Assembly: GCA_963701095.1 (NCBI GenBank) | Contig: OY969564.1 | Location: 288,001-352,000 of the forward strand | Source: an uncultured Methanoregulaceae archaeon | Lineage (GTDB): Archaea; Halobacteriota; Methanomicrobia; Methanomicrobiales; Methanospirillaceae | Length of the DNA: 64,000 nucleotides | Direction: 5' to 3' | In this document: positions 27,001 to 39,000 of the stretch, one piece after another | Numbering within the stretch: the stretch's first letter is position 1 | Layout: the number at the start of each line of letters is the position of its first letter | Made by a program: the position numbers

Positions 27001-30000
27001 GAAAGAATCGTCGTTTGTTTCCGAAACTCCCCTTTCAGATATTGCAAACGAGTGGATATGAGCCATATAGTTGCTTCAAACGGATTATTGAAGAATAAAT
27101 ATTTGGATACTGACAACATCCTGCATAATATGGACAGACCTAAATTATTGTCGACCAGTGCAGTGGCTGAGAATTACGCAGGGTATACGTACCACCTTGA
27201 CGGGGAACTGGTTCCTGCACTTACGGTTGAATTAAAACCGGGACAATCGATCTTCTTCGAGCATCACATTCTGTTGTGGAAGGATACGGGAATAGTGATA
27301 AGCGTTCGTCCTATGAAAGGTGCCATGAAACGGATGATTGCCGGGATGCAGATATTTGTGACCGATGCAACCGGACCGGGTCAAATTGCATTTAGCCGTG
27401 ACGGGCCCGGTCACGTTTTTGGTTTTCATATGAAACCCGGTCAGGAGATTGATGTTCGTGAACATCAATTCCTTGCCGCAACGTCAAATCTCGAGTACAG
27501 TTACATACGGGTAAAGGGGTTTGCAAATATGATGTTTGGTGGCACCGGGTTTTTCATTGATAAGTTCCGGTGTTTAACCAATGATGGGATTCTCTGGATG
27601 CACGGTTACGGAAACGTATTCGAAAAGGTACTAGGTCCGGGTGAACAAATTGATGTCGAACCCGGCGGATGGCTCTACAAAGACGCAAGTGTGTCAATGG
27701 AAACAAACATCCAGTCGATATCGACTGGTCTCCTCGCGAGCATGAACATTATTACGAATCGGTTCACTGGTCCGGGACGGATCGCATTGCAATCGATGTA
27801 TATACATTACGCGTCTGGGGAATAGATGGATTTCTTTCTTTTTTGGTGATAAACAGTCCTTTAATTTGGTAACACATGGATAATTTTGAACCAACACAAA
27901 ATACTGATTGTTGTCATGAGAGCCCAAAACAGAAAGATGCGAGGGATGGGATTCGAACCCAAGAACTCCTACGAGACTAGGCCCTCAACCTAGCGGTAAA
28001 CAAAGGCACTATATCTTATGATGCAGATTAAGAATCATGGAAGATGTTTTGACAAAATACAAGCGGCTCGATCCGGTCAATCATCGGTATTTCGTTGATT
28101 ATCTACGGTACCTCCAGCTTCGTAACATCCGGGAAACGACGATCACAACGAAACTCTGGAAGATCTACGGATACCTGATCTGGTCAGACTTCCGGGATGC
28201 GAAGACAGCACAACCGCAGGATCTCGAAAACTTCTATCTTCAGCGGAGAAAGGAGCGATCACCCATCACGGCATTTGGCGATATCCAAGAGCTCGCCCTG
28301 TTCTTCCGTTGGTTACTCCCGGACCGTGAGCTTGTCAAGTTCAAACCACAGAAGCCCCGGACCGACCTCCCGCCGGAAAAGGTCTTACAATCTGATAATA
28401 TACGGGGAATACTGGAATACTGCGAGTCACAGCGGGATCGTGCCCTGGTTGCCGTGGCATGGGATAGTGCGGCCCGTATCTCGGAGCTGCTCGATACCAA
28501 TATCGGGCACGTTGCCTTTGACCGGTACGGAGCGGTAATAAGTGTGAGCGGTAAGACCGGACGCCGTAATATCCGGCTCGTGAGCTCAGTACCGGACCTT
28601 CAGGCATGGATCAATATCCATCCTCTCAAAAACAACCCGGACGCCCCCCTCTTCGTGACTTCCCGGAGGCGTGGGAATACTTCACTATCCCGGCTCACCG
28701 TGCGCCGGGTGCAAAACATCTTTGCCCGGCTGGGAGATCTTGCAGGTTGCCAAAAGGACACCAATCCCCACGCATTCCGGCACGGGCGTCTTACAATCCG
28801 GGGCAAGCAGCTTACCGAGTCCGAACTTCGGGAGTATGCCGGATGGTCCAAGGGATCGAGCATGGCACAGGTCTATGTGCACCTGTCCAGCCGGGATATC
28901 GACAATAAGATCCTGGCGGTGGATGGGATCAAGCCGGAAGAAGAACCGGAGGCGGACCCGATGGCAGCGCAGATATGCCCCCGATGCAAGAAATCAAACG
29001 CCCCGGATGCGATGTACTGCGACAGATGCAGCATGGCACTTAATGATGAAGCCATGAAAAATATCACTGTGCTCCAAAATATCAATGAGGATCCGGACGC
29101 TCATGCGGAGTACGCGGTATGGCTGAAGGCGCGAAAAGAGAAGATGGTTTAATTTCCCCCCGCGCATCCTCATTTTTTCTTAAAATCAAATACACCTTTT
29201 TGTAAAAATTCAAAGCGATTTTTCCGATTAAATCTCAGACCATTACAGAGTATTTTGTGTGGTTATTATCCTTGAATACCTTAAAGAAAATTCCAATTAT
29301 TATATTCTTTAAATCTTTAAAGGTAATTCTTGTAAAATTGGCTTAAATTTTAGAAATAAGCCCAAATATTGATTTTATTACCAAGAACGTTATATAGAAG
29401 AATTTTTGTATCTTTATTTATGCAATCACCAACAGTAACAATACGGATTGATGCGGCCGCCCATGAAAGAGCTAGAAAAGCAGGACTATGCGTCAGTAAA
29501 ATTGCATCCCAAGCCCTAATTCGGGCAGCGGATACTCTTGAAGGAACGACAAGCAAAACCAAAGAACCCCGGGAGAGCCGCCAAGCATCACCCCGGGATA
29601 CCACTCCAAGAGGAGGGCAGGAAAATGTCAGTCCCTCAACTTGATAAACCCGTTGTACCTGTACGGGTGCCTCGTGCGACAGTAGAGGCCTACCGGAAAA
29701 CAGAACCACTATTCACAGAGTTTCTTATTGAATCCGGGCGGGTTATCGTTCTAGAAAAAATGCCGAATTTGTCGGCGGGAGCGCAGGAGCATGGCATCAA
29801 ATCTTCTGCCGTCTGAAATTCCCCAGGATCGAACTGACGTGTTGCACCTCTTACGGCAGCACGACGACGATATCGACGAGTTAAGCACGGACCAGCTCGC
29901 CGCCATTCGGAAAATTTACCGACTCGACGACCCTCGCACCATCACCGAACTTATCGCGGTAGGAGAGATCACTGTCAGTAAGAGGGATATCGAAGAAATT

Positions 30001-36000: not shown

Positions 36001-39000
36001 CCAGATAAGAATTGCACTGCGACTGTCGCCGGTGAGGCCGGCTTATCCCGCTTCTGTGCCATAACAAAAAGGTTGTCTATCTAAAAGAATGTTATGGCCA
36101 TTTTTTCGTAATCCACGTCAGAACACGTATTCCGGAATCAGGTTGGCTAGTAAACACCGGTTATTTTCAAACAGAATATATTTTCCTATTGTTTGTATAC
36201 GTTAATGGCATGCCGGAAGCATACATGTATATTTATCTACGTTATACCCGGTGAACATATGTGGTCAGATATTATCCACGAATTTGCAGACTCGCCGTCC
36301 CAGGGTCGCGTTGTCCGGTTCCTCCTTGAAAACGGTTTTGGGGTTAACGAGGAAGGAAGGATCTGCTGCAATGATATAGAGATCCCGGCAACGTCAGTCG
36401 CAAAAGCGATTGGTTCGGATCGCCGCGTCGTGGATTCTACTGCACGACGCATACTGGACCGCCCTTTCCTGCGGGAGATCTTTCTTAATATGCGGGCGAC
36501 GCCGGACCTGAGCCGGGTTGCAGAATCCTTGGGGTTCTCAGTTATTGTTGTCATGCCCCGGGATGCGAATGAGCGTGGTATCATCGGTTCCGCCATCCGT
36601 GTTATTGCTGACCATTCTCTTGCGATCCGTCAGATATTTGTCACTGACCCCCAGTCTGTCTGAGGATCCCAAATTGGTAATCATTGTCGAGGATCCGTTA
36701 CCTGCAGGTGTGGTAAATGAGATCCGGTCCCTCCCGCAGGTGCGTCAGGTCATCATTTAAAAAACGTCAATGCGTGAGCAGTTCCACGTCGTTAGCCAGC
36801 CGATACATCCGTTTTCGGATCTTCCGGGGAAGGTTAACGGCAGCGGCAATTTCCTCCTCGATGATTACCCGATTAGAACCGGCAATAAGGTTGTCACTGT
36901 GCGTGACGATTTTTTCCTCGATAGTTTGTGGCATACAATCACGGGGTAAAAGTCCAAGCAACGTGCATTCATCTGCAGTCAGGCCGGCTCCGGTGTGACA
37001 TTCCACGATTCTTGCTATCTCTTCACGAAATCCCTTTTCGCGCAGGAGATCTGCACCCCGTTGTGCATGACCGATTGAATGTGTATTCCCGCGACCAATA
37101 TCATGGAGCATCGCGCCGATAGTTACAAGATTTCTATCAGCGAGATCGGACCGCTTGGCATACTCCTCTGCGCAAGTGCATACCGCTTTACAATGAGCGA
37201 TTACCTTCGGTCTGACGCCGCCCTTACGGAGCAGGGAAATACAACGAATCCGGTTCTCAGGCATGTCCCAAGGTTTTCTTCATGCTCTCGATGCGGTCCC
37301 GTAATGCTTTTACCAGCATTTCATTTTCAAAATGGGAAAGCGGGACGTCGCAGTTCGGGCACTTGAAATCGTTACCAATCGCTACCGTGAAGGTGTAAAT
37401 GTCGTGGCATTCCTTACAGATGTAGAAATCGTTCTCTTCTTCAAACATGATCCTGCGTTCAAGTTTATGAAGCACCATTTCCATTTCTTCACGGATTGCG
37501 TCATGGATATGATCTATCCGCAGCTGCCAGAGATAGGTCAGCCATCCGGTTTCGTTGTTCTTGATCCTGTGGTATTCAGCTAGTCGTTTCTCGTACAGTG
37601 TATACAGGGTATGCCGTACTGAGTTCAGGTTAATGCCGGTTTTAGCGGCTAGATCTTCGTCGCTGTGTTCGCCTTCTTTGGGGAATTTCTCAAGAAGATT
37701 GAGTCCCTCGTCACCCACCAGCCGGTGAATATATGATCGCATTGCGGGATTATTGAGTACTTCTTCCACTGGATCCATCAGCGCATATATTGTCGGACGG
37801 TGCTAATATTCTTATCCAGCGTACCAAATGCTGCATTGCGGGATGGACCTGTGCCTGAGACACTCGTAATTGCCTGGCCCTCTTCAAAAAAAGTCCCGGG
37901 CCACGGGATATCCGAAACGACCGGTGCAAATACTTTTAAATCTGCATCAAGGGTCAGGTCCCGGTCAGCAAATAGGATCCGGCGTGCAGCAAATATCTGT
38001 GGCCGTGGTGGTTCAGGGAGCATTCCTGCACAGGCATTGACATGAAACCGGAACAGGTTACAGGCATATGCAGCCTCGATGGTATCAAGGGTACCCTGGA
38101 ACCGGGGATTCATTTCTATGACATATGGCACATCGTTGCCAACGACAAAATCGATGCCCAGGCAGCCGATACAACCACTTGCTCCCGCAACCTTTTCGGC
38201 AATCTTAACCATTTCTTTCGCCAACGGGTGGTCAAAGGGTGTTACTGATCCTGAGAAACCAAACGCCGATTCACCGGTTTCCCGAAGTATCTGTTCATTT
38301 ACTGCAATCGCCTTTGCCGCATAGCCGTTTGCGATGCAGCAGACGCTTGCCGGGACACCTTCGGCAACCTCTTGCCGGATGTAAGGAATATCCGGGAAAA
38401 GTGCTGCCCATTTTTTTTCTGCCAAGTTATCGTTTAGTATAGCATTACGCCAGCCTCCGGCACCCCGGCGCGGTTTTGCCATCACCGGATAGTGACCATC
38501 ACCAGCAATGCGGGGGACAGGGACCTTAAGTTCTTCAAAAAAATGCTGCATCGTGAGCTTGTCAAGGAAACGTTCGATGCGGTCCCGCGGCGTCCCGCAG
38601 AGCGGAACAGGAAAAGAGATATCTTCCGCACCAGAAGTAGCCACAGCGAAATCAAAGGAGTACCGGTTGCAAAGTTGGGAAATCGCGCCGGGAATGTCGC
38701 TGATATCCTCAAACCGTATCCGATCCCGGGTATACCAGGAAAGATCCTGGTCGCAGAAATGGTCAACCGCACAGACCTCGTACCCGGCAAGAGTAGCGGA
38801 CTGCGCTACATGCCGTGTAGTAAAACCGACAACAAGAACCCGTCCTTTCACAGTTCCTCCGTTTGTTTTCCGGCCTGCGATGGTATAATACGGATCTTCG
38901 CACCGGGAAATGTCCGGTTGAATTCTGACCCTTCATAGAAGCGATCGAGAAACAGCGCAAGACTTGCTATTTCTGAATGCGGCTGGCCGGTGACAGAAAC

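Follow-up and report, generated by a model that had tools for sequence, protein, structure and literature searches.

Integration that replaces the tRNA gene it enters is present in the methanogen genome to which the window (the whole 64,000-nucleotide stretch of DNA that was analysed) belongs, and is spread much wider than first noted. The genome-wide survey's note had proposed that three elements of this genome do not rebuild their target tRNA gene and carry a tRNA of the same anticodon, and this is borne out by an empty site in a relative, by 30 of 33 elements of the integrase family and by four viral contigs. The explanation as a whole, an integrase-attP-tRNA module that replaces the host tRNA and makes the host dependent on the new copy, is very probable; putative parts of it are the dependence, the immunity of the recoded copy and, for this genome, excision.

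Element 1 and its counterparts in the same genome

Element 1 splits the host tRNA-Leu(GAG) gene in the anticodon loop and carries a full copy of the same anticodon inside, with all tRNA parts on the minus strand as claimed. The host 5' half, which forms attL (35956..36000), has C27 and ends in the anticodon loop plus four shared bases; it is followed by the 61-nt P' arm of attP (35899..35959, minus strand), in which GGC at +17 to +19 from the loop mirrors the GCC of the P arm, and by the element-borne full tRNA-Leu(GAG) (35813..35898; T27-A43; Rfam 49.7 bits), which sits 61 bp inward of the left junction and is the sole undamaged GAG gene found in the genome. The host 3' half, forming attR (27938..27995), has G43 and adjoins the P arm with the integrase upstream region (27996..28036, minus strand; GCC at -19 to -17 from the loop), which was compared with the attR arms of 39 integrases and aligned with viral attP sites. 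Both ends of element 1 have 18 bp in common (35973-35956 and 27995-27978), with the 7-nt anticodon loop in the middle. The reported C-G pair of the halves, replaced by T-A in the full copies, was found at pair 27-43 for Leu and 28-42 for Thr.

Regarding the host flanks, a 55-nt leader (36001..36055, minus strand) lies between a conserved upstream block and the 5' half, and a TrpY-like regulator divergent from the tRNA (36193..36663, plus strand; NF053754 at 175 bits versus a cut-off of 180), present in 49 of 53 genomes of the genus, lies upstream, while an AIM24-domain gene (27052..27825, plus strand; PF01987) flanks the other end. The leader gave p 0.008 versus shuffles, 6 of 12 such leaders falling below 0.05, and is probably a decayed 5' half plus arm from an older integration. 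When joined in silico, the two halves are identical to the intact gene that 15 of 29 loci of relatives have at the same site, and an empty site with both flanks, an intact tRNA followed by the AIM24 gene, is present in the relative G086 (locus L122). Ordinary integration, in which the full gene would be a rebuilt tRNA of host 5' half and element 3' half and the upstream 5' half an incidental duplicate, would also place a 3' half beside the integrase, and intact host-type genes do occur near partial integrases in two genomes (G075, G270); this reading is nevertheless very improbable, since no intact gene at this site has the T27 of the full copy, the upstream host flank runs into the 5' half, and, contradicting it outright, viral attP sites lack a tRNA half and have the whole gene next to them.

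Element 1 encodes a tyrosine integrase of 371 aa (28037..29152; PF00589, E 1.6e-14) with a C-terminal four-cysteine motif and, in the alignment, invariant R147, K173, H245, R248, W270 and Y280, which we take to be the catalytic residues. Further genes, likewise on the plus strand, are four short ORFs (91, 92, 76 and 88 aa; 29369..30284) without a family match, probably regulators or excision factors judging from their position, a P4-type primase/helicase (30197..32041; PF08706, PF19263; TIGR01613, E 4.6e-78), a serine resolvase/invertase (32615..33199; PF00239, E 1.5e-29) and, as cargo, a 201-aa protein with a hydrophobic N-terminus and no family match (33655..34260). No virion gene match was detected in element 1, and it is not classed as a temperate virus.

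The tRNA parts of the other two elements were found as described (contig positions): 5' half 2543714-2543671, replacement 2543613-2543528 and 3' half 2535961-2535904 for element 2, and 849043-849002, 848833-848760 and 786654-786606, plus a 105-bp junction duplicate, for provirus 2. Elements 1 and 2 had been called sister integrase-primase elements with integrases about 90% alike. The integrase and some 530 bp at the left end are indeed common to both, with tblastn pieces of 89.7% and 94.6%, but the integrase of element 2 lies in two frames and the primases are not detectably related: the element 1 primase query matched only itself, and element 2 encodes a PriCT-1 protein plus, separately, a prim-pol piece. 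The CAG copy of element 2 is the GAG copy of element 1 save for base 34. Provirus 2 would follow the same scheme at tRNA-Thr(GGT) using an unrelated integrase; this enzyme (PF00589) belongs to a family other than that of element 1 (blastp E 0.014 between them), the ends have only the 7-nt loop in common, and the tRNA-Thr of the relative G017 is identical to the two halves. The provirus 2 integrase had 8 matches in 301 genomes, none of the 7 others lying beside a tRNA-Thr half, and a viral search with it gave no match.

The integrase family, its free module and its remnants

Across genomes, a Leu 3' half lies directly upstream of the integrase in 29 of the 30 best integrase loci, covering all five Leu anticodons, and the layout of 5' half, arm and full tRNA was found in 30 of 33 elements with a located far end, in this order and in one family outside it. 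The remaining three are those of G075 and G270, with partial integrases and intact host-type genes, and that of G582, with a tRNA but no adjoining 5' half. Among 59 distinct junctions with a full second tRNA, one further junction with undetermined letters being left out, the anticodon matches that of the target at 58 and the anticodon stem differs, again, at 58. The tree of 39 integrases has 13 target changes. Among 21 loci that were read, 8 are weaker integrase matches that do not lie beside Leu halves.

A tandem-tRNA pattern matched 54 of 301 genomes, which is not a prevalence figure because many rows are chance matches or repeats and long arms are missed. Five of 28 matches in a separate search were rejected as tandem intron-bearing Leu genes (four Methanocellales/Methanocellaceae records and one Halobacteriota record). 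In family f7 the sequence patterns missed relevant genes because of a D-arm variant, and a DNA query recovered them. A relaxed ARAGORN scan yielded nothing but noise, and a sigma-70 promoter scan was set aside as unsuited to archaea.

The unintegrated module is represented by four IMG/VR contigs with the integrase, an attP without a tRNA half and then a tRNA; an intact attP followed by such a tRNA was present in 4 of 13 viral loci, with matching anticodon in 4/4. The tRNA beside attP in one viral contig (L431) is identical to the tRNA-Leu(GAG) of element 1 (85/85), and tail genes adjoin the module at another locus (L434), so the module is also carried on tailed-virus contigs. In the P' arms, GG(C/T) at +16 to +18 from the loop was found in 36 of 51 (shuffled mean 2.6, maximum 9). 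A viral search with a single integrase gave no match, and viral pattern scans for Thr (4 matches) and Leu junctions (60 matches) were rejected as chance or tandem tRNAs.

Short contigs in four runs break at these repeats, and neither an attP nor an attB joint for element 1 was found in them, nor was the exact element 1 junction motif matched in JGI metagenomes (0 matches). Such contig ends are what an assembly artefact of repeated tRNA sequence might leave, but of all the alternatives an artefact is the least credible: the same layout recurs with different sequences in dozens of genomes, many of them single-contig, the arm motif is conserved, and reversed-pattern controls gave chance-level noise without tRNA form.

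According to the proposed mechanism, the tyrosine integrase would recombine attP, a short and roughly symmetric site of P arm, 7-bp anticodon-loop overlap and P' arm without a tRNA half, with the anticodon loop of the host tRNA-Leu gene, leaving the latter as two dead halves. The element's full tRNA, which has the same anticodon and lies 30-115 bp past attP, would therefore land immediately after the host 5' half, in the same orientation, and make good the lost decoding. Transcription of short-arm replacements probably starts at the host tRNA promoter and runs through the 5' half; long arms include a captured tRNA upstream region. The family switches target by a joint change of overlap and anticodon. 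On loss of the integrase or of the whole element the replacement would stay and become the host's gene, because it cannot be lost, and the old 5' half and arm would decay into a leader.

Regarding remnants, integrase-less islands of 1.5-2.7 kb with both halves were detected, while no separate host 3' half was found in the single-contig genomes G081 (GAG, TAG), G287, G297, G119 and G232, nor in the two-contig G214; several single-contig genomes have lost the element and keep the replacement as the host's own gene. A broader reading, held tentatively at somewhat below even chances, is that the module repeatedly overwrites methanogen tRNA genes, so that many resident tRNA-Leu and tRNA-Thr genes, including those split here, would be domesticated copies, and selection for self-protection would have driven anticodon-stem changes and the acquisition of canonical 37/38 introns, later fixed in the host. 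The halves could also be regarded as trans-spliced split tRNA genes as in Nanoarchaeum or Caldivirga, with which they have distant 5' and 3' halves in common (accessible text of PMC4033280); their breaks lie in the anticodon loop, and the attP symmetry gives some complementarity of trailer and leader. In the trans-spliced case, however, halves joined by complementary leaders are the working gene (PMC4033280, same text), whereas those here are att scars: both contain the whole loop, co-folding read by eye gave no bulge-helix-bulge at 37/38, they flank an integrase element, and the 3' half is missing from several complete genomes, which leaves trans-splicing hardly plausible.

Host dependence and the altered anticodon stem

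Expression of the element's tRNA and dependence of the host on it are highly likely for GAG, TAG, TAA and Thr GGT, and for CAG and CAA the chances are even. As CUU and CUC are together the commonest Leu codons of the genome, the view that the GAG target is essential is well founded, as it is for Thr GGT; it is doubtful for CAG and CAA, where loss of the gene may be covered by wobble. By a hand count using a pattern that misses some genes, 33 of 35 sites, from 30 genomes, have no intact match for the anticodon other than the second copy; in G141 a further intact TAA gene is present. The genome under study has another, damaged GAG copy at contig position 187357, which scores 39.2 bits and so exceeds the Rfam threshold, and four further decayed Leu copies; the five replacement-type copies that lie outside split sites are decayed. 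It is unlikely, though conceivable, that the host is independent of the element's tRNA, this being a mild benefit or a passenger while wobble by a U34 isoacceptor or the 187357 copy covers the loss. That copy does pass Rfam, the CAG replacement of G247 has a deletion with no other CAG gene matched there, and C34 tRNAs are dispensable in some archaea. Yet anticodons match at nearly all junctions over at least 13 target switches, an intact replacement persists at 59 of 61 junctions, with decay of the copies found elsewhere (7, 14 and 15 substitutions), and the 187357 copy is altered in both the D and the T stem and at the variable-arm base, no counterpart of it lying behind tRNA-Ser in the loci of 29 relatives (two with less than 50 bp of flank).

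The replacements had been described as recoded, and the stem difference is real and non-random; its role is putative, and some replacements were later integrated into. A difference at position 27 is found in 46 of the 59 own pairs versus 29% of 1513 resident same-anticodon pairs, and C27 is present in 33/33 resident GAG genes versus 2/10 GAG replacements. The Thr stem reads CCTCC in 49 of 50 rows outside this genome, and CTTCC in provirus 2 and G205, whose tRNA bodies differ. After collapsing to 39 types, the shortage of identical stems comes down to 1 versus an expectation of 5.6 (P 0.011, or 0.07 when restricted to positions 27-28), among kin that are not independent, which counts against strict immunity. 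Strict immunity through T27-A43 is rejected: the GAG 5' half of G081 carries the replacement's own stem, former replacements are split anew in G059 and probably also in G079, the crossover in the 105-bp duplicate of provirus 2 lies at the replacement's loop, and the stems TTAGG, TCAGG and CCAGG are replacements in one lineage and targets in others.

Most likely, the outer anticodon-stem change or a 37/38 insertion makes the replacement a poorer substrate for its own integrase. A weaker but real contender is that the differences merely mark tRNAs captured from other lineages, with no protective role, as the tRNA body of provirus 2 is a common resident type of another clade, upstream regions are captured in long arms, position 28 varies in 58% of resident pairs and replacements are re-targeted. 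Foreign origin accounts less well for 9 of 10 pairs with identical bases 1-26 still differing in the stem, where half of background pairs would, for a background resident gene matching 1/51 replacement 5' halves versus 18/51 host halves, for the same 28-42 swap on different Thr bodies, and for the intron-like 37/38 insertion in the two second copies that, G081 apart, retain the target's stem.

Known integration systems and biological meaning

Of the marks of tRNA-dependent integration, a tyrosine integrase, attB over a host tRNA gene, a short core without rebuilding and a tRNA of the same anticodon were found here. In the accessible text on tRNA-dependent lysogeny of actinobacteriophages (Fionnbharth/K4, cluster L, Gaia; PMC10865867), a tyrosine integrase likewise uses an anticodon-loop core (8-17 bp there, 7-18 bp here), the tRNA is not rebuilt and an element-borne tRNA has the same anticodon. 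Differences from that system are the archaeal hosts ('archae' occurs 0 times in that text), the occurrence on small non-viral elements also, one family serving five isoacceptors, and the lasting replacement of a host gene; dependence is established by genetics there and putative here. The methanogen module packs integrase, attP and tRNA into about 200 bp plus the gene, which puts the tRNA behind the host 5' half, whereas in Fionnbharth the tRNA has a promoter of its own and overlaps with another gene (PMC10865867, same text).

In classical SSV1/pNOB8-type integration, as far as covered by the accessible text of PMC3293823, the target is also a tRNA and the tyrosine recombinase adjoins the att site, but attP there includes one end of the tRNA (44 bp in SSV1) and the gene is restored, whereas attP here has neither half and the integrase is unsplit. 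The SNJ2-type integrases of haloarchaea have a 14 bp core at the tRNA 3' end, with subgroups keeping one target (accessible text of PMC5861418); a short core, tRNA targets and an integrase-att module traded among viruses and other elements are common to both, while the core here is the anticodon loop, and 'anticodon', 'methano' and a replacement tRNA are absent from the text examined. The disrupted tRNA-Thr(GGU) of Caldiarchaeum, in the same part of PMC3293823, also has a 5' fragment upstream of a full tRNA and a recombinase element, but there the element's 5' part and the host 3' part rebuild the gene at positions 24-27, with an intron proposed to be element-derived and to block further integration, whereas in the present case the element brings the entire gene and the cut lies in the loop. 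The literature search found no report of tRNA-dependent integration in Archaea, though site surveys, the methanogen virus compendium and supplements could mention such sites.

Here tRNA-dependent integration, known from bacterial phages, extends to Archaea as a common habit of one integrase family, caught at all stages: free module, fresh integrant, target switch, integrase-less island, domesticated gene and decayed scar. New relative to actinophages is that the element's tRNA often remains permanently as a gene of the host. Programs that locate islands and proviruses will put such ends in the wrong place because direct repeats go down to 7 bp and a full tRNA lies inside the junction, and an integrase whose target is set by a 7-bp overlap could become a methanogen integration tool. 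Two element-borne tRNAs of the family may show 37/38 intron gain in progress, a matter relevant to the question why introns are acquired by archaeal tRNA genes, and the family provides a concrete path by which core tRNA genes can be replaced horizontally.

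Split tRNA genes in G000 and their empty sites in relatives

The layout in which an element splits a host tRNA gene and carries a replacement is real in the genome under study (G000). Regarding element 1, the 8-kb integrase-primase element of the window, the genome-wide survey's note had claimed that the host tRNA-Leu(GAG) gene is split without being rebuilt and that a stem pair differs (C-G versus T-A), and both points hold. The sole full tRNA of the window, a tRNA-Leu(GAG), lies at 35898-35813, with a tRNA-Leu 5' half on the same strand 102 bp upstream (36000-35956) and a 3' half 8 kb downstream (27995-27938), adjoining the start of the tyrosine integrase. 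The ends share 18 bp with the anticodon loop at the centre, and the full tRNA (the replacement) has T27-A43 where the halves have C27 and G43, being otherwise identical. Genes for the integrase, a P4-type primase/helicase and a serine resolvase, short ORFs and cargo lie between the halves. Excision of element 1 was not seen in four contig sets or in JGI metagenomes. A segment of about 230 bp next to the replacement on its inner side (35535-35790) also occurs at contig position 2613902 and partly at contig position 1087050, following tRNA-Phe; remnants of resolvase or primase-like genes lie in these regions.

Thirty loci at the TrpY-like gene upstream were compared: the tRNA gene is split in four (G000, G226, G081 and G308) and intact in 23 (one ending at a contig end), two have no visible tRNA and one has a decayed half ahead of an intact gene. 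An intact C27-G43 gene is present between both G000 flanks in G086, and the joined GAG halves of G000 equal the intact gene at 15 of 29 relatives' loci.

The layouts of element 2 (contig 2535901-2543714, tRNA-Leu(CAG)) and provirus 2 (tRNA-Thr(GGT)) were also found at the positions claimed. The element 2 integrase is frameshifted (contig 2536550-2536614; real or a sequencing error), and the primase genes of element 2 are unlike those of element 1. The element 2 tRNA equals that of element 1 except at base 34 and does not have the two features that mark the host CAG halves, and therefore came from an anticodon switch. The provirus 2 integrase is unrelated to that of element 1, and the provirus ends have only the 7-nt loop in common; its 105-bp duplicate (contig 848938-848834) is built from the 5' half, loop and arm of the replacement, at whose loop the crossover falls, and the tRNA-Thr of a relative (G017) equals the halves of provirus 2. 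Upstream of distant relatives of this integrase (loci L201, L203, L204 and L205) is a short motif like the initial 15 bases of tRNA-Gln, which may be a tRNA 5'-end target.

Five further replacement-type tRNA-Leu copies in G000 are decayed or partial (contig positions 171910, 1099828, 371585, 1070340 and 187441), two of them about 0.9 kb from integrases of another family (414-418 aa) and with element-like upstream bases. The best of the five (contig 187357) has 7 changes and scores 39.2 bits against Rfam, versus 49.7 for the element 1 replacement; no counterpart was found in relatives' loci. Extra divergent tRNA-Cys(GCA) and tRNA-Thr(TGT) genes (contig 2002990-2003062 and 2077533-2077608), possibly element-borne, lie next to normal ones, and two further tyrosine integrases (contig 360956-362243 and 1205653-1207277) adjoin intact tRNA-Gly(GCC) and tRNA-Gln(TTG) genes, for which matching halves were not found.

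Integrase family, targets and attachment sites

Matches to the element 1 integrase (E 1e-40 or better) are present in 48 of 301 genomes of Methanomicrobiales, and a tRNA-Leu 3' half beginning at the loop lies directly upstream in 29 of the 30 best loci, with all five anticodons represented. For 33 elements the far end could be placed on the contig that carries the integrase; 30 of them, spanning about 6.6 to 105 kb, have a 5' half, an attP arm and a full tRNA (23 within the order and seven from another family, f7, beyond it). The three that deviate are G075 and G270, with a partial integrase, an intact host-type gene and no halves seen, and G582, with a replacement-type gene lacking an adjoining 5' half. 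When named genomes were scanned, 23 of 28 hits proved true; the record titles name Methanoregula, Methanoculleus, Methanocalculus, Methanofollis, Methanolinea and, once, Methanosarcinaceae. Taken together, the loci comprise 61 distinct Leu junctions, not counting a further one dropped for undetermined letters and including a CAA junction that appeared in a single scan; a full second tRNA is present at 59, with the same anticodon in 58, the odd one having a decayed half. At 33 of 35 sites in 30 carrier genomes no intact pattern match for the anticodon other than the second copy was seen (hand count), a figure obtained with a pattern that misses some genes and on many fragmented genomes.

A tree of 39 integrases requires 13 anticodon changes (minimum 4). 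The GAG loop at attR of G081 versus CAG at attL and in the replacement is as expected of a mismatched overlap that segregated once the target had been switched, though a point mutation arising later may instead have produced it.

An IMG/VR alignment search returned 13 loci, in four of which (L431, L432, L434 and L438) the integrase lies within the contig, with a P arm, 7-bp loop, P' arm and full tRNA-Leu ahead of it and no tRNA half, the arrangement of an unintegrated element. The loop agrees with the tRNA anticodon in all four modules, the L431 tRNA is identical to that of element 1, and tail genes adjoin the L434 module; the others are two right junctions and seven loci without visible tRNA. 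Tandem integration rather than a free form would give the same sequence, and under either, judging from these modules, the attP is without a tRNA 3' half and the tRNA is the element's own. A motif with symmetry between the two sides recurs in the arms: GG(C/T) stands at +16 to +18 in 36 of 51 arms versus 2.6 in shuffles, and many P arms have GCC as its mirror image.

Several loci show other tRNA arrangements. A Leu(CAG) element of G172 (L192:5550-6713) has a six-tRNA cluster (Leu CAA, Trp, Ser CGA, Leu TAG, Ser TGA, Ile TAT), and G602 has a second host-like tRNA-Leu(TAG) locus missing part of the anticodon arm, 3.6 kb from attR (L502:1470-1560). Tandem tRNA-Leu(TAG)/(TAA) genes with D-arm introns of variable length and almost no spacer (L157, L167, L172, L173, L177) escape ARAGORN without intron mode. 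The Methanosarcinaceae record L159 (139-226 and 1793-1990) has a split TAA layout and, 1.65 kb on, another full tRNA that is nearly identical; in G051 (L306) an intact CAG gene is followed after 100 bp by a truncated Leu(CAA)-like copy, and in G003 (L313/L317) a CAG gene is followed by a duplicate GAG gene.

Recoded anticodon stems and replacements left behind

The stems of halves and replacement differ in 58 of 59 pairs, at position 28 in 41 and at position 30 in none. Among resident same-anticodon pairs (123 genes in 30 genomes selected because they gave no tandem match; of 136 genes, 13 with a half-like match upstream were left out), position 28 differs in 58% and position 27 in 29%, and position 27, differing in 46 of the 59 pairs, therefore stands out. 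When collapsed to 39 types, there is 1 identical stem where 5.6 would be expected (P 0.011, with kin that are not independent). Regarding Thr(GGT), the stem is CCTCC in 49 of 50 rows outside G000; the provirus 2 copy is another clade's common gene plus a 28-42 swap, and the G205 replacement has the same swap in a different tRNA body.

The target's stem is kept in copies of G247 (Thr) and G141 (Leu TAA), which have insertions of 18 and 34 nt at 37/38 that by eye look like bulge-helix-bulge introns (strict in G247, relaxed in G141); both pass Rfam. The surroundings of both copies gave neither an integrase nor a 3' half, so their element origin is argued from layout. Self-protection of the replacement from the integrase would not be absolute: the split gene of G059 is itself an earlier replacement, G079 has a similar trace, G081 has a GAG half with the replacement's own stem, and the 105-bp duplicate of provirus 2, with its crossover at the replacement loop, points the same way. 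A tRNA-Thr(GGT) of G329 (L534:1501-1574) has a C28-A42 mismatch, its stem being host-type on the 5' side and replacement-type on the 3' side, as in the chimera that a deletion running from attL to a replacement should leave.

Three islands of 1.5-2.7 kb keep both halves and the replacement, with no match to the three integrases tried. Only the 5' half, arm and replacement remain in the single-contig genomes G081 (GAG, TAG), G287, G297, G119 and G232 and the two-contig G214, where a separate host 3' half was not found. At the GAG site the tRNA starts 2-4 nt past a conserved block in most genomes, while 12 genomes have a leader of 51-95 nt, tRNA-like at its start and arm-like at its end; six of these 12 leaders resemble half-plus-arm references at p < 0.05 (G000, p 0.008). 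The corresponding count for the Thr site is 11 of 26 (G000, p 0.003), and the gap there is 3 nt in four genomes. These leaders suggest, as a weaker step, that the genes split in G000 are probably older replacements themselves.

Proposed mechanism and relation to known systems

The crossover falls in the anticodon loop and no gene is rebuilt; the same-anticodon tRNA is element-borne, with target switching coupled, and the replacement persists after element loss. At the sequence level element 1 would work like tRNA-dependent lysogeny (PMC10865867), whose sequence hallmarks it shares; it is not a virus, and that paper makes no mention of archaea. Literature searches, in a collection without most subscription papers, listed no archaeal report of tRNA-dependent integration; the related work consulted was passages of PMC3293823, PMC5861418, PMC11705971 and PMC4033280.

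The replacement would be expressed, where arms are short by read-through from the host promoter, and its stem or intron would shield it from its own integrase. The host would in turn depend on the replacement: the case is weaker for CAG and CAA, the CAG copy of G247 being broken, which speaks against dependence at CAG, and strong for GAG, because CUU and CUC make up 28 and 25 per thousand codons.
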